Below are positions 49,127 to 57,674 of a stretch of 64,000 nucleotides of DNA, in pieces. This DNA is from Cryomorpha ignava (GTDB lineage: Bacteria; Bacteroidota; Bacteroidia; Flavobacteriales_D; Cryomorphaceae), in the NCBI RefSeq assembly GCF_010686655.1, contig NZ_JAAGVY010000014.1:1-64000 (forward strand), in the 5' to 3' direction. The first letter of the stretch is position 1. Each line of letters starts with the position of its first letter. The position numbers were made by a program, and so were the translations under genes. Under the pieces are notes generated by a model. The model was given only the letters and a program-made list of their open reading frames with translations, had not been told where the DNA came from and did not search any database.

Positions 49127-49834
49127 TTATTCAATGTCAAAATCAAAATATGTGTCGGGAAAGGGTTCGTTACGCAGTGTAAAATGCCACCATTCTGTTT
49201 CTATTGGTTTAAATCCGGCAAGCATCATAGCATTTCGGAGAATCAATCTTTTATCGCGCTGATCTTTTGGTAGTGCCTGATATTTAGAAGCCGATTCCGG
49301 CCCGAAAAAATCAAAGCTTGTTCCCATTAGAACTATCTCTCCGTTAGAGATGTAAACAAGACCTAAATCTATTGTACTTCCCCGTGAGTGGCCACTTTTG
49401 GATGCGATGTAACCCTGCTTGAAAAGATTTTTTTTGGAAACATCGGGATAGAAAGCTTGCTTGTTAATTGTATCATTTAACAACCGGCTCCAGCTTACAA
49501 ACATGTTAACTGCTTTTTGTGGTCTGTAGCCATCGTATATAATAATTCCATAACCCAAACGATTCAAAAGTTCAATTGCTTTCTCTAAAGAATCAGCGGC
49601 CGCCCTGGTAAGCAAAATCTTTTCTGCATTATAGCCGTTTATACGTTTTCCTACAAAATTATTGGATGTTGCATATCTGACATCTATGTACACGTTAGGA
49701 GGTCTGGACTGTATTTCAATGAAATCTGAAGGAATATTTGAGTCAAATTGACTCCTCTCAATTTTCTCTTTTACAGGATTTAGACTGATGGTAATCAGCG
49801 CATAAATCAAAAGATTAACTAAATAAGTGCCCAT
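49127..49834 (-). CDS. M15 family D-Ala-D-Ala dipeptidase (VanX/DdpX-like)
   Basis: Zinc/catalytic motifs SGHSRGSTIDL and EWWHF. There is a signal/TM sequence at the N-terminus. Confidence 0.75.
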   Translation of the reverse strand: MGTYLVNLLIYALITISLNPVKEKIERSQFDSNIPSDFIEIQSRPPNVYIDVRYATSNNFVGKRINGYNAEKILLTRAAADSLEKAIELLNRLGYGIIIYDGYRPQKAVNMFVSWSRLLNDTINKQAFYPDVSKKNLFKQGYIASKSGHSRGSTIDLGLVYISNGEIVLMGTSFDFFGPESASKYQALPKDQRDKRLILRNAMMLAGFKPIETEWWHFTLRNEPFPDTYFDFDIE

Positions 49835-49961: not shown

Positions 49962-50378
49962 ATGGAGTTCAAATATTACATAGATAAAGAACAGAAAATA
50001 GTTGTGAGATCTTTTCATGGTGAAGTTTCTCTTGAATCGCTGGAAAAATCGCTCGCTGTGGTTTGGGTAGATCCAGATTACAGTCCCCTTTACAGTGGAG
50101 TTGCAGATTTTAGAGATAGTAAGCTTCTTTTTTCAAAAGTTATGCTTTACAAAATTATCAAAACAGTGTCAGATAATTCCATGAGTTTGCAAGGTAGAGT
50201 AGCCATACTTGTTTCGGAGCCTCTTTCTGCAGCAATGGCTACTATTTATGGTGAGCAATTGAGGAATATGAGCCAAGTGGAGATTTTTTGTTACACGTCA
50301 GTGGCAGCGAAGTTCTTAGAAGTTGACACGAATATTCTGGATTGCTTAAGCGATGTTAAGCCAATTTATGTGGAATAG
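49962..50378 (+). CDS. Hypothetical protein, paralog A of tandem pair
   Basis: MEFKYYIDKEQKIVVRSFHGEVSLESLEK...GRVAILVSEPLSAAMATIYGEQL. Confidence 0.55.
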   Translation: MEFKYYIDKEQKIVVRSFHGEVSLESLEKSLAVVWVDPDYSPLYSGVADFRDSKLLFSKVMLYKIIKTVSDNSMSLQGRVAILVSEPLSAAMATIYGEQLRNMSQVEIFCYTSVAAKFLEVDTNILDCLSDVKPIYVE

Positions 50379-50481: not shown

Positions 50482-50910
50482 TTGTTACAACCCATGGAGT
50501 TCAAATTTTTTATAGATGTAGATCAGAAAGTGATTCTAGAAACTTTTTATGGTGATATTTCAATATCAGACATTGAAAAGGCTATTCCACATATATTTAA
50601 TCATCCCGATTATAATAAGCACTTTGATGTTGCTATTGATTTTAGAAAAGCGAATAGCAAGTATTCAAAGCAAGCTTTACAAGATTTTATAAAAGGCTAT
50701 GTGGAAAATGATCAAAAAGTGCTCGGGAGGGTAGCCATTTTGGTCTCTGAACCTACGTCGGCAGCTATGGCTACTTTGTATGGTGAAGAGATGAAGGAAA
50801 TTCATACCCTTGGGATATTTTGTTCAGAATCGGAAGTTCATCGTTTTTTGCGTATTTCACCAGAGATATTTAAAAAAATTGATGCTCTGGAAACAATATC
50901 ACTGGAATAA
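50482..50910 (+). CDS. Hypothetical protein, paralog B of tandem pair
   Basis: MEFKFFIDVDQKVILETFYGDISISDIEK...GRVAILVSEPTSAAMATLYGEEM. About 35-40% identical to paralog A. Confidence 0.55.
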   Translation: MLQPMEFKFFIDVDQKVILETFYGDISISDIEKAIPHIFNHPDYNKHFDVAIDFRKANSKYSKQALQDFIKGYVENDQKVLGRVAILVSEPTSAAMATLYGEEMKEIHTLGIFCSESEVHRFLRISPEIFKKIDALETISLE

Positions 50911-50921
50911 ATATTGAATTC

Positions 50922-52376
50922 TTAGTCGGGAATATAAAGCAATTTTTTATTCGCAAAATCATAAAGCGTAAGTCTGCGCAGATCGAAATAGGCTATCCAA
51001 AAATCGCGTAAAGCTTTCGTATATGATCGCTTGGCCGCATCTTTTTCATTTAAGGCAATATTTAAATCAGTAATTCCCACTTTCCCTGTCAAGTATCTGT
51101 TTTGAGCTACCTTATAACGTTCATCAGCTACCTCATCCGATTTTTTTGCAATCTGAAGCTGATTACGCAATACCTCAAACCGCCTCACGAGCGTGATAAT
51201 CTCCTGCTCAAAATTTTGGATATCCTGTTCGAGTACGTATTGATTTAATTGCTGGTTTGCCAAAGCTGTTTGAATGCGCGCTTTGTTTCTTCCCCAATCC
51301 AAAATTGGCACTGCAAGACCGATATCTAATCTTTGCTGATCATTTGGATTTGCGTAAGCATCATCAAAATCATCGCTTGCCGTATTTAGTCCGTACGAAG
51401 CAACCAAATTGGCTCCGAAACGTTGTTTGCGCGCTTCGGCGACATCTCTTTCAGCTTCTATTCTGCTGCGCTCAAATTCGATGTAGTCAGATCGATTCAT
51501 TTTGGCATACATCAATGCATCTTGCATTAAAATGTCAAATTTCGGAATACTTTCGGGCAAAATCAGCTGTAGGGTATCGCTTGATTTAATGGCGAGATAG
51601 GCGCGAAGTTTCTGACTGGCTGTTTGCAAATCAAGCTGTGCCTGGGTTACATCTTGTTGCGACCTAAGTAGCTGAAGTTCCACTTGAAGTAGTTTATCTT
51701 TTGATGTGGTTCCAATATTGTAACGCCCTTCTTCAATCTTGTAAATAGTGTCGTTATTCGTTAGATTAAAATCAGCAATTTGGTAATTTATTTGGGCATC
51801 GAGAAAATCAAAAAAATACCGCACAGATTCGCGACTTACAAATTCCATTTGCTCTACGTAATTTCTCTTGCTCTCTTCGTAGCGCAAAGGTTCGGTGCGT
51901 CTATCCCATTTTAGCGGGTTGTAACCAAATATTGGTTGATCTAATTTTATGTTTACAAGGGTGGTATTAAAACGATCTAAATCTTGCTGAATATCATTGA
52001 AATAATTGAGATTGGTATTTACAGAAAGGTTCCCTCCGGTAAATGCAATGGGCTGATTTAATCCTAAATTCAAAGTTGAATTGATCTGCTCGCGCGATTG
52101 AAATACAATGCTTCCATCATCAAGTCTATTACTAAAATAATCACGATTGTACCCCGGCAAATTTCCCCTCAAGACTAGTTGCGGATTGTAGTTAGATTTA
52201 TATGTTCTGTACTGCCAATAGCTGTTTTTCTTTCGTGTCTCTGCCTGTTTCGATGCGGGCGACTGCTCACGAGAGAGCATAATTGCATCTGTGAGAGAAA
52301 GTATGTTTACATTTTGACCATTTGCCGAAAAGGCGAACAAACCTATTATAAAAAGCAGAAAAATTATTTTATTCAT
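50922..52376 (-). CDS. TolC-family outer-membrane efflux protein
   Basis: Signal peptide MNKIIFLLFIIGLFAFSANGQ (start set at the internal Met rather than 52433). Two-repeat OEP architecture rich in Q/L heptads. Confidence 0.8.
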   Translation of the reverse strand: MNKIIFLLFIIGLFAFSANGQNVNILSLTDAIMLSREQSPASKQAETRKKNSYWQYRTYKSNYNPQLVLRGNLPGYNRDYFSNRLDDGSIVFQSREQINSTLNLGLNQPIAFTGGNLSVNTNLNYFNDIQQDLDRFNTTLVNIKLDQPIFGYNPLKWDRRTEPLRYEESKRNYVEQMEFVSRESVRYFFDFLDAQINYQIADFNLTNNDTIYKIEEGRYNIGTTSKDKLLQVELQLLRSQQDVTQAQLDLQTASQKLRAYLAIKSSDTLQLILPESIPKFDILMQDALMYAKMNRSDYIEFERSRIEAERDVAEARKQRFGANLVASYGLNTASDDFDDAYANPNDQQRLDIGLAVPILDWGRNKARIQTALANQQLNQYVLEQDIQNFEQEIITLVRRFEVLRNQLQIAKKSDEVADERYKVAQNRYLTGKVGITDLNIALNEKDAAKRSYTKALRDFWIAYFDLRRLTLYDFANKKLLYIPD

Positions 52377-53709
52377 AACGCAATGAATTAATGGGGTTTT
52401 GCTTCGCAGCGCGTTGAGCAGGGGTAATGCCAAAAATCAATCCTATAGAAGCGGCCACCCCAAACGAAATGAAAATTGAAGACAAGGAAATAACTGTTTT
52501 TATATTGGCGAAATGGCTAACGACATAGGCCAAAGTTATTCCCAGAATAATTCCTAAAACACCACCTGTAATGCTAATAAGTACAGACTCAAACATAAAT
52601 TGATAAACGATATCGCTTTTTTTTGCGCCAAGCGAGAGGCGGAGACCAATTTCCTTAATTCGCTCTAATACAGAGGCAAGCATAATATTCATAATACCAA
52701 TACCACCTACTAAGAGAGATATACCGGCTATAGCACCAAGCACGTAATTAAACAATTCATTGCTGCGTCGCTGTTGCTTTAAGAGCAATTCTGGTATTTC
52801 GATCTGATAATCTACTACACCGTAATGTTTGCGCTCCAGCAAACGCGAAACAACATCAGAAACCGCTCCAAGCAGCTCGGTTTGATCTACCTGAAGTACC
52901 ATTCTATCAATCTGATGATAATTTGATGGTGCTTTAGCAGTGCTTACTTCCTCTTCGTCATTGCCACTGGAATTGGCAGTTCTAATCATCTGTTCGGTAA
53001 TTAAATCACGATTTTCGTATCGCACCAAAACGGTTTGAAGAGGAGCGTAAACATCCATATTGTAATCGCGAATGCCAAGGTTGCTCTGGCTTTGATCGCT
53101 GATAAGTCGTTGCTCAAGCACACCAATTACTTCAAGCCACTGCACACCAACTTTGAGACGTTTGCCAATAGGGTTCTCGGTAGGGAAGAAGCGATTTTTG
53201 ATTGATTTTCCGATTATGCATACAGCCGACCCTTGTTCAATCTGTTTCTCATTAAACATTTTTCCATCCGAGAGATTGAAATTGAAAATCTCGAAGTAAA
53301 CGGGTTCAACACCTACGAGCTTTGCCGACCTGCGTATGCCGTTATTGATAATATAGGTATCAAAAATTATCTCGGGGCTTATTTTTTGAATATTCGGTAT
53401 GATTTGGCGAATGGCTTCTGCATCCTCAAGGCGCAAGCCAGGCGAAAATTTCTCTTTTTCATTTGCAGCGTTTTCAGTATTTACCGTTTCTTCCTTTTGC
53501 TCTATGATTGGAGTTATTACCACATTGTTGACTCCTACAAGCTTCATTTGCTCATTGAGCTCTTGCTGGGTGCCATTTCCAATGGCGAGCATTGCGATAA
53601 CAGCTGCTACGCCAAAAATAATTCCAAGAGCAGTAAGAAGCGATCGCATTCTATTGCTTATCAAGGCTTCAAGAGCAATAGTAAAATTAGCCATTAAGCG
53701 TTCGTTCAT
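52369..53709 (-). CDS. ABC transporter permease, MacB/FtsX-type (MacB periplasmic domain + FtsX), no ATPase domain
   Basis: N-terminal TM, a large periplasmic domain, and a C-terminal four-TM FtsX region (...LRLSLGAKKSDIVYQFMFESVLISITGGVLGI...). Confidence 0.8.
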   Translation of the reverse strand: MNERLMANFTIALEALISNRMRSLLTALGIIFGVAAVIAMLAIGNGTQQELNEQMKLVGVNNVVITPIIEQKEETVNTENAANEKEKFSPGLRLEDAEAIRQIIPNIQKISPEIIFDTYIINNGIRRSAKLVGVEPVYFEIFNFNLSDGKMFNEKQIEQGSAVCIIGKSIKNRFFPTENPIGKRLKVGVQWLEVIGVLEQRLISDQSQSNLGIRDYNMDVYAPLQTVLVRYENRDLITEQMIRTANSSGNDEEEVSTAKAPSNYHQIDRMVLQVDQTELLGAVSDVVSRLLERKHYGVVDYQIEIPELLLKQQRRSNELFNYVLGAIAGISLLVGGIGIMNIMLASVLERIKEIGLRLSLGAKKSDIVYQFMFESVLISITGGVLGIILGITLAYVVSHFANIKTVISLSSIFISFGVAASIGLIFGITPAQRAAKQNPINSLRYE

Positions 53710-53711
53710 AT

Positions 53712-55073
53712 CTACGACGCTTTACGTTTTCTCTTAAACTCGCCACCTGCCGAGTCTTTTCGTATAGTATCCGGCACGTTTGGCTTCGACCCTTCTAATT
53801 TCTCTTGTTTTCGCTTCCCATTTAACTCCGGTAAGAGATTAACATCCGATTTTTCCATTCCGCTTACTTTGTTTAGATAAACCTGATCGTCTTCTTCTAA
53901 TCCCATTTTCACAATTACCTCGTTCCGGTTAGACTCACCAACCTCTATTTCTTGTTTCACGGCATTTAGGCCTGACTTTTTGTAAACATATGTTATTGAA
54001 TCGGCCAGATTAAAGAGCGCCTCAAGAGGTACAAATAGTTTGTTTTCAGCCTTTTCGGTAATAATTCTATTGCTTGTAGTCATTGATGGGCGTAGCAAAT
54101 CGTCTTTTTCATTTACTTCAATACTCACTTTAAAAACTTTGGCATCGCTGTTAGGTCTTTGCTCTCCTACATTGGCCACGCGTAGTACCTTACCGGTAAA
54201 TCTCTTTTCAGGAAAAGCGTCTAATCCAATTTCAACCATCTGGCCAGCCTCAACTCTCCTGATATCTACTTCATTTACATAAGTTGCAGAGATCATTGTT
54301 GAGAGGTCGGGTAAAGTAGCCACTACTGGATTCCAAGCATTAATTTGAGAACCAGTTTTGGTTGCACGGCCATTGTAGTCTTTGATGTAAATCAGCATTC
54401 CATCTTCAGGAGCTTTAATAGTAAAATCTTGAATAAGATCTTTCATTCCATCAAGGTTGCGCTGCTCTTTTAGCCTGTTAAGCGATACCTCTTGCATTTT
54501 GGCAATATTCTGCTGTCGCTTAATTTTGTAATTCTCTTTTGCCTGCTCAAGTGATCGGCCGGCTTTCTCAACATCTATTTCTGCCTGGCGAATGGTGGCG
54601 GGTGGCTCGTATTTGCTTTGATCTAATACCAGTTGCCTTTCATCAACAGCATAAGCCAGATTTATAAGTTCGTCACGTGATTTTCGCATGTCGAGAGAAG
54701 TATCAAGTTTTGTTTGAATGAATTTAGACTCTATTTTTTCTAATTCCAGCTGCGAATCTTTCAACTTGTTAGTCAATTCAGAAGGATCTATAGTTGCCAC
54801 ATAATCTCCTTTTTTAACGAGTGTTCCCTCATCTATTATATCCTGAATGGTCATATTCCAAATACGGTAGTCGCGCGTACCCTTGGGACCCAGAATTTCT
54901 ACCGAATTTTTAGCTTCAAGCTCTCCGGTTGTAGTAATGTCAATAACAAACTCACCCTTTTTTACCGACACCAGTATTCCGGCTGACTCTGCAGAACTCG
55001 ACGATGTAAAATAATATATAAGGATTATCGCAGCAATAGCTCCAATAATTCCAATCCAAATCTTTGATTTCAT
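53712..55073 (-). CDS. Efflux periplasmic adaptor (HlyD/MacA-like membrane fusion protein)
   Basis: N-terminal TM anchor, coiled-coil hairpin, beta-barrel/lipoyl segments, and a K/R-rich C-terminal tail. Confidence 0.8.
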   Translation of the reverse strand: MKSKIWIGIIGAIAAIILIYYFTSSSSAESAGILVSVKKGEFVIDITTTGELEAKNSVEILGPKGTRDYRIWNMTIQDIIDEGTLVKKGDYVATIDPSELTNKLKDSQLELEKIESKFIQTKLDTSLDMRKSRDELINLAYAVDERQLVLDQSKYEPPATIRQAEIDVEKAGRSLEQAKENYKIKRQQNIAKMQEVSLNRLKEQRNLDGMKDLIQDFTIKAPEDGMLIYIKDYNGRATKTGSQINAWNPVVATLPDLSTMISATYVNEVDIRRVEAGQMVEIGLDAFPEKRFTGKVLRVANVGEQRPNSDAKVFKVSIEVNEKDDLLRPSMTTSNRIITEKAENKLFVPLEALFNLADSITYVYKKSGLNAVKQEIEVGESNRNEVIVKMGLEEDDQVYLNKVSGMEKSDVNLLPELNGKRKQEKLEGSKPNVPDTIRKDSAGGEFKRKRKAS

Positions 55074-55180
55074 TAAATTGTATGGAATAAATATATTCGC
55101 GCTAAAGCTAAAACCTTCAAGCTGTAGGGCGACTTTAGGTGTCGTTAAGGTATGTTAAGGTTAACCAGCTATAACAGCTC

Positions 55181-55390
55181 TTACTTATTTTTCTGCTTTC
55201 GGAAATAATAATATCCAATAAGCACTACGAAAAGGCCAAGAATGGGAATGATAAATTCGGGTTGCTGATATATACTCACCGGTTTTTCGTTTTGGCCGGG
55301 GTCAATATGGGTTGGTATTTGGCCATGAACACTAAGTACACTTAGCAAACAAAACGCAAAAATCGCCGGTTTTTTTTTCAGAAGTTTCAT
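55181..55390 (-). CDS. Small exported protein with C-terminal TM helix and basic tail (paralog 1)
   Basis: MKLLKKKPAIFAFCLLSVLSVHGQIPTHIDPGQNEKPVSIYQQPEFIIPILGLFVVLIGYYYFRKQKNK. The start is set at the internal Met of ORF 55181..55462. Confidence 0.5.
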   Translation of the reverse strand: MKLLKKKPAIFAFCLLSVLSVHGQIPTHIDPGQNEKPVSIYQQPEFIIPILGLFVVLIGYYYFRKQKNK

Positions 55391-55556
55391 ATGTATTAAA
55401 TCAGGTTGGTGAATATATGACAATAAGCACTGTGTTTTGTTTTGAAATAGAAAATGCCTCAATTAAATTGAAAACCTAGAGTTTTTTCGTTGTCCGACTC
55501 TTAATATTTCTGCACGGCTTAATTTTTGGTATTTTTTAAAATACAACACCACCGTT

Positions 55557-56315
55557 ATGAAATATCACTACTTCTCTGCTGCGCTAATAATAAGCCTATC
55601 ATCTTGTACTTCATATCAGTACGTATCGCTTAAAAGCGAATTAGATCAAACTACAGAATCAAAACACTATTACTATCAAGAAAATGTATATGTCGATTTT
55701 GATTTTTCAGGGGCTAATTTTCCGATGAGTATTTTTCTTGAAAATATTGGAAGTGAGCCACTATATCTCGATCTGGAGAAAACTCTATTTTTAGAGAATG
55801 ATGTGATTTTGCGAAACGGCATTCCCGGTAATACCGGAAATATTTCAACATTTATAAAATACGAAGGGCAGGTGAGTGGCGTCAAGAGCTCCGATGAATA
55901 TCCTAACATCCTATACATCCCTTCAGGTGAAAAAATTTCCATGTTCTATGATGTATTTGGTTTTCCATACAATGAAGTTGTGAAATTAAACAGTACTCCC
56001 AAAAAAGAAAGGGTTGAAGGCTACAATTACAGAGTTAAATCTCTTGAACTTCCTAAAAATCAATCTCCCGATTATGAAATTGATTTCTATTTCTATACGG
56101 ATTCTACTCATGAAGACGGATATGATGTAATCGCTACGTTTTGGCCGGATAAGATTTATACCAAGAATACTAAGCCTACAGAGTTTCCATTTAGAAACCC
56201 CAATACATTTCATACATCCCAAGTAAATGAAGCCGCGCAGACGGCAGGGTATCTCACAATTATCGGTTTGCCCCTCACTGCATTAGTGCTCATACCTGAT
56301 TTTGAGGAGGAATAA
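55557..56315 (+). CDS. Hypothetical lipoprotein
   Basis: Lipobox LIISLSSCTSYQ. 252 aa with no recognised domain. Confidence 0.55.
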   Translation: MKYHYFSAALIISLSSCTSYQYVSLKSELDQTTESKHYYYQENVYVDFDFSGANFPMSIFLENIGSEPLYLDLEKTLFLENDVILRNGIPGNTGNISTFIKYEGQVSGVKSSDEYPNILYIPSGEKISMFYDVFGFPYNEVVKLNSTPKKERVEGYNYRVKSLELPKNQSPDYEIDFYFYTDSTHEDGYDVIATFWPDKIYTKNTKPTEFPFRNPNTFHTSQVNEAAQTAGYLTIIGLPLTALVLIPDFEEE

Positions 56316-56332
56316 AAAACTTAATACAAATC

Positions 56333-56551
56333 TTATTTTTTACTTCGCTTTTGCCAGAAATAAAAAGCAATTGCGAGAATGATAAATACCACAATGGGTA
56401 TAATATATTTTGGCTGCTGATAAATGCTAACCGCTTCGTCGCTCTGGCCTGCATCAACACCATCAGGCAATTGTGCGAAAGCAGTAATTGAAGAAGCGAT
56501 CAGACAAATTACAGTAAATATTGCTGCTTGAATAGAATTATAGATTTTCAT
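56333..56551 (-). CDS. Small exported protein with C-terminal TM helix and basic tail (paralog 2)
   Basis: MKIYNSIQAAIFTVICLIASSITAFAQLPDGVDAGQSDEAVSIYQQPKYIIPIVVFIILAIAFYFWQKRSKK. It shares SIYQQP(E/K)(F/Y)IIPI plus the TM helix and basic tail with 55181..55390. Confidence 0.5.
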   Translation of the reverse strand: MKIYNSIQAAIFTVICLIASSITAFAQLPDGVDAGQSDEAVSIYQQPKYIIPIVVFIILAIAFYFWQKRSKK

Positions 56552-56701
56552 ATTTCGTAAGTTTAACTGGTTTTATTATTACAAAATTCATTAGGTTTTT
56601 GTTTTGAGATAAGATGAAGTTCTTGTTAGTTTAGGATTTAGGATTTAGGATTTCAGATTGGAGCGCACGATGTAATGGAATGATTCAAAAAATTAAACTA
56701 T

Positions 56702-56928
56702 TTAGTGTCTGTCCATAAAGTCCGCTATCTGCGTTGCACTTCATTTGCAAACAGTCTTTTCGACTCATCTCGACTCATCTCGACTCCGCTCTATGACCAC
56801 CGCTCGATAACCACCGCTCAAGGCATCGCACTGACAAATGTCAACTCCTTGATTTCTAATTCTACGTGCGCCTTTCTATCAAACATTCTGACCGAGACAC
56901 TAGAGTGTATTGACAGACACTAATTTAG
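56702..56928. mobile_element. MITE-like element, copy 2 (perfect terminal inverted repeats ttagtgtctgtc / gacagacactaa)
   Basis: A 12-bp perfect terminal inverted repeat. It aligns with 6028-6178 across both arms. It carries an extra internal block with 3 x tcgactcatc tandem units and a ttgacaaatgtcaa hairpin. Confidence 0.65.
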
Positions 56929-57003
56929 AGATTACGAAGCAATACAATATATATCGTTTGTATATATAAGTACTATTTTATATCTTCGCGAAATAAATAA
57001 TAT

Positions 57004-57141
57004 AGGGTTACCCCTTTAGATCGCGAAGCGTCTAAACCATTAATTATTAACGGAATACAAACCAAAGCCCTGAAAGGGCGACATAAATCTACGCGAGGTG
57101 CGATGAAAACTACATGTTTCGCGATCTAAGTGGGTAACCCT
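57004..57141. mobile_element. Second MITE/REP-like element: 24-bp imperfect terminal inverted repeats (agggttacccctttagatcgcgaa / ttcgcgatctaagtgggtaaccct) enclosing the IS200-end-like motif
   Basis: The terminal repeats match at 22 of 24 positions. The interior contains aaagccctgaaagggcgacataaatctacgcgag, which matches 226-256 and, inverted, 931-951. It is flanked by ataatat on both sides, which could be a target duplication. Confidence 0.6.
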
Positions 57142-57158
57142 AAAATAATATTTCATTT

Positions 57159-57386
57159 ATGGCATCGAAACAAATGGCATTCCGGTTTGACGAGGAATTA
57201 ATTAGACAAGTTAAGATCAAGGCGGAAGCAGAGCATAGAAGCTTGAACAATTATATAGAAGTATTGATGCTTAGAGATATTGGTAAGATTCCCAACGCAG
57301 AGACCAAAAAAGCAATTGACGAGGTAATGTCCGGAAAAGAACTGGAAGAGATAGATGACATTGACGAATTTATGGATTCTTTGTAA
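57159..57386 (+). CDS. dinJ: DinJ/RelB-family RHH antitoxin
   Basis: A 75-aa ribbon-helix-helix protein (AFRFDEELIRQVKIKAEAEHRSLNNYIEVLM). It lies 9 bp upstream of a YafQ-type toxin. Confidence 0.7.
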   Translation: MASKQMAFRFDEELIRQVKIKAEAEHRSLNNYIEVLMLRDIGKIPNAETKKAIDEVMSGKELEEIDDIDEFMDSL

Positions 57387-57395
57387 TGGTAGCTG

Positions 57396-57674
57396 ATGTA
57401 CAAACTTGTTATTTCAACAAAATTCAAAAAAGACCTTAAAAAGATTAAGAAAGATCCTCTTAATCACGCTTTAACGAGAGCCATTTTAAAAATCTTAAAA
57501 GAAAAAGGTGCTGTTGGCATTCCAGTGAATATGAAGCCACACCGACTGTCAGGAGGATACAAAAACAGCTGGGAATGCCATATCCGGCCAGATTTACTAA
57601 TTATTTGGTTTCAGATAGAAGACCCGCAAACTATTAAGCTCATTCGTATTGGATCACATTCGGATCTGTTTTAA
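57396..57674 (+). CDS. yafQ: YafQ-family type II toxin (RelE/ParE superfamily mRNA interferase)
   Basis: KFKKDLKKIKK...HRLSGGYKNSWECHIRPDLLIIWFQIEDPQTIKLIRIGSHSDLF. The C-terminal GSHSDLF and CHIxPD(W/L)LLI motifs are YafQ hallmarks. Confidence 0.8.
   Translation: MYKLVISTKFKKDLKKIKKDPLNHALTRAILKILKEKGAVGIPVNMKPHRLSGGYKNSWECHIRPDLLIIWFQIEDPQTIKLIRIGSHSDLF

Follow-up and report, generated by a model that had tools for sequence, protein, structure and literature searches.

We analyzed a 64,000-nucleotide stretch of the genome of Cryomorpha ignava (contig NZ_JAAGVY010000014.1, positions 1 to 64,000; hereafter, the window), in which two paralogous genes for very small membrane proteins, here called mini-1 and mini-2, lie on the minus strand and bracket a plus-strand gene encoding a 252-amino-acid (aa) lipoprotein, directly upstream of an operon encoding a membrane-fusion protein (MFP), a MacB-type permease and a TolC-family outer-membrane factor (Table 1). 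This arrangement had been described in an earlier note, made from the letters of the sequence, and our analysis bears it out: both small genes are present at the positions given there, with products that are 40% identical over 65 aligned residues (E 5e-18); an open reading frame (ORF) of 252 aa with a lipobox lies between them; the tails RKQKNK and QKRSKK follow a single transmembrane (TM) helix as described; and the mini-1 stop codon is separated by 107 nt from the ATG of the MFP gene on the same strand. Leader and TM prediction, which the note had proposed as a check, gives leaders of 23 aa (mini-1) and 26 aa (mini-2), a mature protein of 46 aa in each case, and one TM helix. In both proteins the string SIYQQP(E/K)(F/Y)IIPI abuts an 18-residue hydrophobic stretch. 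The mechanical ORF list carries mini-1 back to a TTG at 55462, and the NCBI annotation is the 69-aa form given in Table 1. No third mini copy is present in the 64-kb window, and no terminator-like site follows mini-1.

Table 1. Coordinates of features in the window and in related loci (L numbers; coordinates are those of each locus; P numbers are clusters of the mini-protein family)
Feature	Location	Strand	Description
TolC/OEP outer-membrane factor	50922..52433	minus	longest ORF 503 aa; orthologues called at 484-488 aa
MacB-type permease	52369..53709	minus	MacB_PCD + FtsX; 446 aa; no fused or adjacent ATPase
Membrane-fusion protein	53712..55073	minus	HlyD_D23, HlyD_3; 453 aa; N-terminal TM anchor
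Conserved non-coding element GGTTAACCTTAACATACCTTAAC	55144..55166	minus	in mini-1/MFP spacer, ~70 nt upstream of MFP start codon
mini-1 gene G3O08_09425	55181..55390	minus	69 aa; ATG start at MKLLKKK
mini-1 leader MKLLKKKPAIFAFCLLSVLSVHG	55322-55390	minus	residues 1-23 (predicted)
mini-1 acidic outside segment QIPTHIDPGQNEKPVSIYQQPE	55256-55321	minus	residues 24-45
mini-1 TM helix FIIPILGLFVVLIGYYYF	55202-55255	minus	residues 46-63 (predicted)
mini-1 basic tail RKQKNK	55184-55201	minus	residues 64-69; stop codon 55181-55183
Lipoprotein gene G3O08_09430	55557..56315	plus	252 aa; predicted lipoprotein; starts MKYHYFSAALIISLSSC
mini-2 gene G3O08_09435	56333..56551	minus	72 aa
mini-2 leader MKIYNSIQAAIFTVICLIASSITAFA	56474-56551	minus	residues 1-26 (predicted)
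mini-2 acidic outside segment QLPDGVDAGQSDEAVSIYQQPK	56408-56473	minus	residues 27-48
mini-2 TM helix YIIPIVVFIILAIAFYFW	56354-56407	minus	residues 49-66 (predicted)
mini-2 basic tail QKRSKK	56336-56353	minus	residues 67-72
Pump-linked loci (13)	window, L001-L004, L008, L010/11, L012, L014, L015/16, L018, L019, L021/22
Exact copies of the 16-mer CTTAACATACCTTAAC	L001 5776-5791; L002 5976-5991; L003 3702-3717; L008 8332-8347
Single TTAAC-N5-TTAAC site upstream of MFP gene, further loci	L004, L010-L012, L014, L016, L018, L019, L021, L022
Short-leader members	L004 7971-8135; L015 5980-6138; L016 63-221; L017 945-1118; L019 1366-1524; L007 615-788		also P0020, P0030, P0044
Pump-less mini genes	L006 7923-8165; L023 8001-8243		order: T9SS FG-GAP/ASPIC protein, mini, M15 D-Ala-D-Ala dipeptidase
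Pump-less members, other	L013, L024, L025		contexts unrelated
NlpC/P60 + SH3 peptidase gene	L004 7204-7947; L005 7202-7945; L019 504-1322		L005 copy Pfam-confirmed

The operon next to mini-1 encodes a tripartite pump of the MacB type (type VII ABC), as judged by matches to MacB_PCD (1e-38), FtsX (1.5e-21), HlyD_D23 (3.9e-11) and the TolC family (4e-14), and an orthologue of its MFP is tagged Beta-barrel_YknX in Pfam. The earlier description of the operon as ATPase-less holds for the window, whose 64 kb contain no Walker A motif with an accompanying ABC signature, and also for the related loci, 13 of 13 of which lack an ATPase gene in the operon. Since none is encoded in the window or in the related operons, the ATPase of this pump must be encoded elsewhere.

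Profile searches of Pfam, NCBIfam, PADLOC and the PDB returned nothing above threshold for either mini-protein or for the lipoprotein, in agreement with the earlier statement that the family was not a recognizable one, and no significant Pfam family was found for any of 42 members of the mini-protein family, which also excludes membership of the AcrZ family. Searching 1.84 billion representatives in full with an HMMER profile gave 38 clusters at E<=1e-3, of which we class 37 as real; the remaining one, P0016, is a translated tandem repeat of 2657 aa in which 41 weak, TM-like matched stretches sum to a significant score, and it was discarded. All 37 real clusters are 54-109 aa long and have one common layout. 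Word-indexed searches recovered far smaller sets (five relatives for mini-2, three for mini-1 and six for the lipoprotein, the window's own proteins included), and the relatives that could be traced to contigs (L001 and L002) show the same gene order as the window. Pattern scans identified three loci in 185,579 species genomes, all of them in Cryomorphaceae or Flavobacteriales metagenome-assembled genomes, and nine loci in a metagenome set; these scans used the PTHIDPG subset A3 of the alignment and are biased toward the main subfamily, so that both counts are lower bounds. It is well supported that the mini-proteins are a real family, so far found only in Cryomorphaceae-like Flavobacteriales, and one without prior annotation.

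Examination of 54 distinct family sequences demonstrated how uniform the layout is. The leader has a median length of 23 aa, and an invariant Gln is preceded, at position -1, by A, G or S in 51 of the 54; this Gln opens an outside segment of 19-27 aa with a net charge of -2 to -6, then by a hydrophobic helix of ~20 residues, and then by a tail whose first eight residues carry a charge of +3 to +6. The architecture predicted by these statistics is matched by a confident AlphaFold2 model of mini-2, built with a 42-sequence alignment (mean pLDDT, the model's own confidence score, 83.9), which consists of a helix at residues 2-26, coil at 27-46 and a second helix at 47-71, with the Pro of the motif as the first residue of the predicted TM helix. 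By the positive-inside rule, the mature protein of ~46 residues is therefore predicted to cross the inner membrane once, with its N-terminus and the acidic, unstructured segment outside, in the periplasm, and its C-terminus with the short polybasic tail inside, in the cytoplasm.

In Bacteroidetes, the hallmark of the so-called Q-rule is a Gln in the first position after signal peptidase I cleavage (PMC5837995, PMC10653852). Like the substrates that follow this rule, the mini-proteins have an invariant Gln at +1 after a hydrophobic leader, with a small residue at -1 in nearly all members, and we infer that signal peptidase I removes a Sec leader by cutting ahead of this Gln; because cleavage at this position fits the Q-rule, the mature N-terminus is probably a pyroglutamate. 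Eight of the 54 members, mostly first copies of tandem pairs, differ from Q-rule substrates in having only 8-11 residues before the AQ. These short-leader members (e.g., MIPTLLSAQTPTHIDPG) lack a canonical signal peptide yet keep the AQxPTHIDPG block, and a longer leader in L004 and L019 would run into the preceding NlpC/P60 gene.

The family consensus reads AQxPTxIDPG..D..V.....P.Y, followed by the helix and RR/KK, and two motifs recur family-wide, QxP(T/Q)(H/N)(I/V)DPG and an aromatic-x-x-P-x-(Y/F) cap; only the Q and the P of the AQxP block are invariant across the whole family. Conservation is thus strongest at the mature N-terminus and not beside the TM helix, where the earlier note had placed its conserved motif. 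The architecture that the note described and a looser form of its pattern are retained throughout, but the exact SIYQQP wording is restricted to the closest relatives (P0002-P0008), with SIYEQP in P0015. A neighbor-joining tree of the mature parts, which is short and noisy, resolves three groups: a main group with QxPTHIDPG that includes mini-1, a type B group with QNP(E/D)YVDPGNxRGDE, and a third group in which mini-2 is found with P0015, P0031, P0035 and P0037. Mini-1 clusters with the copy found upstream of the MFP gene in other loci, and mini-2 is a diverged paralog. The paralogs diverge chiefly in the outside segment. Duplicated copies occur in several arrangements: the lipoprotein gene lies between two copies in the window, L001 and L002; two copies stand in tandem in L004, L014 and L007; and L016 and L019 have a tandem pair, next an opposite-strand lipoprotein gene and then the MFP gene.

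We mapped the genomic contexts of family members with the family hidden Markov model on six-frame ORFs and with tblastn of the window proteins. The loci were fetched by searching for the mini-proteins, and this makes them a biased sample for any association between pump and mini. In 13 distinct loci, one or more mini genes lie directly upstream of, and on the same strand as, an operon for an orthologous MFP, MacB-type permease and TolC factor, with MFPs 65-93% identical and permeases 73-97% identical to those of the window. The earlier note had considered the case of homologues that are rare and never linked to efflux operons, and proposed a search for co-localization with FtsX/HlyD/TolC operons: the homologues are indeed rare, and 13 distinct loci show this link. 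No pump-bearing locus without a mini was seen in this biased sample. On the other side of the mini, the neighboring gene varies and can be the lipoprotein gene followed by mini-2 and a toxin-antitoxin pair, a gene for a type IX secretion system (T9SS) C-terminal-domain protein, an NlpC/P60 gene, a PIF1 gene or a CheB-like gene.

The 107-nt spacer between mini-1 and the MFP gene contains a conserved non-coding element, whose core, TTAAC-N5-TTAAC, is a direct repeat of 10-bp period. Four related loci carry the 16-mer CTTAACATACCTTAAC unchanged, although the rest of the spacer has diverged, and TTAAC-N5-TTAAC itself occurs once per pump-bearing locus, 60-90 nt upstream of the likely MFP start. 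The repeat is unique within the window, is absent from the pump-less loci L006 and L023, and occurs once more, in L025, among the fetched loci. The interval from the repeat to the MFP start codon includes a Bacteroidota -7-like box (TAGCTTTA). The position and conservation of the repeat suggest that it is a candidate operator of a pump-specific promoter, and it offers a handle for finding the regulator of the pump, none being encoded nearby. The regions upstream of the mini genes yielded no common promoter or operator comparable to the TTAAC repeat, and a scan for sigma-70-type promoters, a model not appropriate for Bacteroidota, gave no more sites than in shuffled sequence. An Rfam scan of 54900-57200 returned one sub-threshold chance match, outside the region of interest.

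Based on this gene order, our leading interpretation, which we put forward tentatively, is that the MFP-proximal mini may serve the adjacent MacB-type pump as a small membrane-bound accessory subunit or as a modulator. In this picture the TM helix of the mini would rest against either the permease or the MFP anchor, its acidic segment would touch the periplasmic parts of the permease or MFP, and the 252-aa lipoprotein might be part of the same pump module. Arguing for such a role are the junction between mini and MFP, which is kept in 13 loci while the gene on the other side changes, the lack of a terminator-like site after mini-1, and the precedent of YknW, described below. A broader form of the proposal, which we consider unlikely on balance, is that the mini-proteins, possibly with the lipoprotein, are dedicated fourth and fifth components of the Flavobacteriales MacB-type tripartite pump, with lineage-specific duplications (types A, B and C) tuning assembly or substrate choice; if true, they would be, for type VII ABC pumps of diderm bacteria, the first small subunits with a single TM pass to be described.

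Several observations weigh against an accessory role. Five members with flanks of at least ~1.7 kb, mostly 3.7-8 kb per side, adjoin no pump. A wider gene order (TPR, PIF1, DUF2911, DUF6155 and M15) is common to all pump-linked loci, and because of this we regard these loci as orthologous and of one lineage, i.e., not as independent instances of the association. The spacers between mini and MFP are ~105-204 nt by the called MFP starts. In L016 and L019, with the lipoprotein gene lying between the minis and the MFP gene, it is the MFP gene that the TTAAC repeat accompanies. More generally, the pump appears to have its own promoter element downstream of the mini gene, and this weakens the case for obligatory co-transcription of mini-1 and the pump, although read-through from mini-1 into the pump may occur, as no terminator-like site follows mini-1.

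Nearly as likely as an accessory role is that the mini is a pump-independent small envelope protein, acting for example in the turnover of the envelope or of peptidoglycan peptides, and that its position reflects gene order inherited within one lineage. The wider gene order shared by the pump-linked loci and the pump's own conserved upstream element speak for such a protein, as do the pump-less loci: in L006 and L023 the mini lies between a T9SS FG-GAP protein gene and an M15 gene, with neither a pump nor a TTAAC repeat, and the contexts of L013, L024 and L025 are unrelated. In the window, the M15 gene (49127-49834) lies just past the pump operon, and since in L006 and L023 it directly follows the mini, the pump block looks to have been inserted, or deleted, between mini and M15. 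In one sub-lineage a gene encoding an NlpC/P60 + SH3 peptidase is located directly upstream of the first mini, on the same strand, the two genes being 24-44 nt apart in L004 and L019 and 68 nt apart in L005; the first mini also closely follows NlpC/P60 in L014, and co-transcription with NlpC/P60 is possible. With NlpC/P60 and M15 as neighbors, genes for peptidoglycan-peptide enzymes repeatedly adjoin the minis. Against pump independence stand the junction between mini and MFP, which is kept in 13 of 13 pump loci while the other side changes at least five times, and the lack of any pump-bearing locus without a mini, as far as loci fetched via the minis can tell.

Two further explanations are improbable, to a similar degree. 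In one of these, the mini would be a membrane-tethered precursor from which the acidic segment of ~20 residues is released by proteolysis as a signal or as a cargo for the MacB-type pump, whose substrates come from the periplasm. Pumps of this type export periplasmic peptides and toxins (reviewed in PMC8277102), and both the strongest conservation (QxPTHIDPG) and most of the diversification between paralogs fall in the outside segment; yet the stretch leading from this segment to the TM helix holds no conserved cleavage motif, the helix and basic tail match the outside segment in how uniformly they are kept, the proteins have no cysteines, no conserved modification-enzyme or peptidase genes are present nearby, and members exist with no pump in cis. 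In the other, a sensor would govern the pump operon via TTAAC-N5-TTAAC, and the mini would act on this sensor as a small connector or regulator in the membrane. In its favor are a conserved direct repeat with a 10-bp period upstream of every MFP gene and a mini gene adjoining the regulated operon, but it is drawn purely by analogy with small modulators of histidine kinases, none of the loci encodes a sensor kinase or response regulator, and the regions upstream of the mini genes share no common motif.

The earlier note had also likened the mini-proteins to C-terminal sorting or anchor signals, and in layout they do resemble PEP-CTERM and LPXTG sorting domains, with a short motif that precedes a hydrophobic helix and a cluster of basic residues. 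The TM helix is immediately preceded by P-E-(Y/F) in many members, weak sub-threshold matches to LPXTG and Heimdall-CTERM models occur, and an enzyme could be sought in XrtF of Flavobacteria, an orphan exosortase whose substrates are unknown (PMC10936215). Processing by an exosortase-, rhombosortase- or sortase-like enzyme is nevertheless very improbable, since the whole mature protein is the conserved unit, with its most conserved block at the mature N-terminus, the motif, TM helix and basic tail are not found on any larger passenger protein (every real profile match being 54-109 aa), and P-x-Y is a helix cap, in which the P opens the predicted TM helix and has aromatic residues beside it. 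The E of P-E-Y is not conserved and the P is also replaced in several members, there is no LPXTG or PEP signature and no NCBIfam PEP-CTERM match, the LPXTG and Heimdall-CTERM scores fall below the curated cut-offs, and the family is far rarer than XrtF, with no mini homologue found in XrtF-bearing Flavobacterium johnsoniae.

The names that these proteins carry in UniRef are misleading, and with the family now cleanly defined they can be corrected. Mini-1 is entered as an "LPXTG cell wall anchor domain-containing protein", and its match to TIGR01167 scores 13.5 bits against a cut-off of 15.9 (E 0.088), covers only the TM helix and basic tail, and lies in a sequence with no LPXTG; the match to the Heimdall-CTERM model scores 13.3 bits against a cut-off of 24. 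The name "Adenylosuccinate synthetase" for mini-2 is an annotation error, given a length of 72 aa where >400 aa would be expected and no Pfam or NCBIfam match. For the lipoprotein, "DUF4249 domain-containing protein" was likewise rejected, as it has no Pfam family at E<=1.

The mini-proteins are a new small-protein family of a known general kind. AcrZ of Escherichia coli is a protein of ~50 residues with a single TM helix that works with AcrB, the inner-membrane component of a resistance-nodulation-division (RND) pump, and its binding to this pump has been proven by experiment. A small single-pass partner of a tripartite pump is the role that we propose for the minis; unlike them, AcrZ has neither a cleaved leader nor a conserved periplasmic segment, there is no sequence relationship between the two, and the partner of AcrZ is an RND pump, whereas the minis adjoin a MacB-type permease to which gene order links them. 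Should a mini turn out to be a genuine subunit of its pump, the use of tiny single-pass partners would extend from RND pumps to MacB-type tripartite pumps. A second comparison is with YknW of Bacillus, an extra membrane protein required by the MacB-type pump YknXYZ (PMC8277102), which works with the MacB-type permease YknZ and an adaptor of the YknX type, the type for which MFP orthologues are tagged here. YknW is not small, has four TM helices and shows no homology to the minis, and the YknWXYZ operon includes the ATPase YknY and belongs to a Gram-positive organism with no TolC. The loci described here define a compact candidate module of one or two mini genes, the lipoprotein gene and the MFP-permease-TolC operon, and if the mini proves to be a true subunit, small proteins beside Bacteroidota efflux operons deserve systematic annotation. 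The general importance of the family is modest, because it is rare and confined to one lineage, and its function is read from gene order there.

The 252-aa lipoprotein has a lipobox, LSSC, in which Cys17 is invariant in 10 homologues, and it is predicted to be beta-rich, with a C-terminal hydrophobic segment followed by an acidic end; an AlphaFold2 model built with six close homologues has a mean pLDDT of 32.6 and is unusable. Homologues with 27-78% identity adjoin the minis in seven loci, on the opposite strand each time, and in L008 a homologue is located 3 kb away. In two further loci, L010 (8558-8818, minus strand) and L011 (8296-8556, minus strand), PIF1 and the mini are separated by an 87-aa ORF with a weak match to the C-terminal quarter of the lipoprotein family (E 0.002-0.004); this ORF is probably a decayed remnant of the lipoprotein gene.

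Beyond mini-2, a short tandem repeat, (AGGATTT)x3, is found on the plus strand at 56631-56658, ~80-105 nt upstream of the codon at which mini-2 starts. The window also contains a toxin-antitoxin pair between mini-2 and the gene for the PIF1 helicase, i.e., a small antitoxin-like ORF (57159-57386, plus strand) upstream of a RelE/YafQ-family toxin gene (57396-57674, plus strand; TIGR02385, 6.4e-15). In the syntenic loci L001 and L002, PIF1 and mini-2 are 160-310 bp apart with no gene called between them, so that the pair in the window looks like a strain-specific insertion. At the other end of the operon, just downstream of the TolC gene, two tandem ORFs of 138 and 142 aa (49962-50378 and 50482-50910, both plus strand) are apparent paralogs; they have no Pfam, NCBIfam or PADLOC match, and a homologue is present at the same position in L002, L004, L010, L014 and L019.

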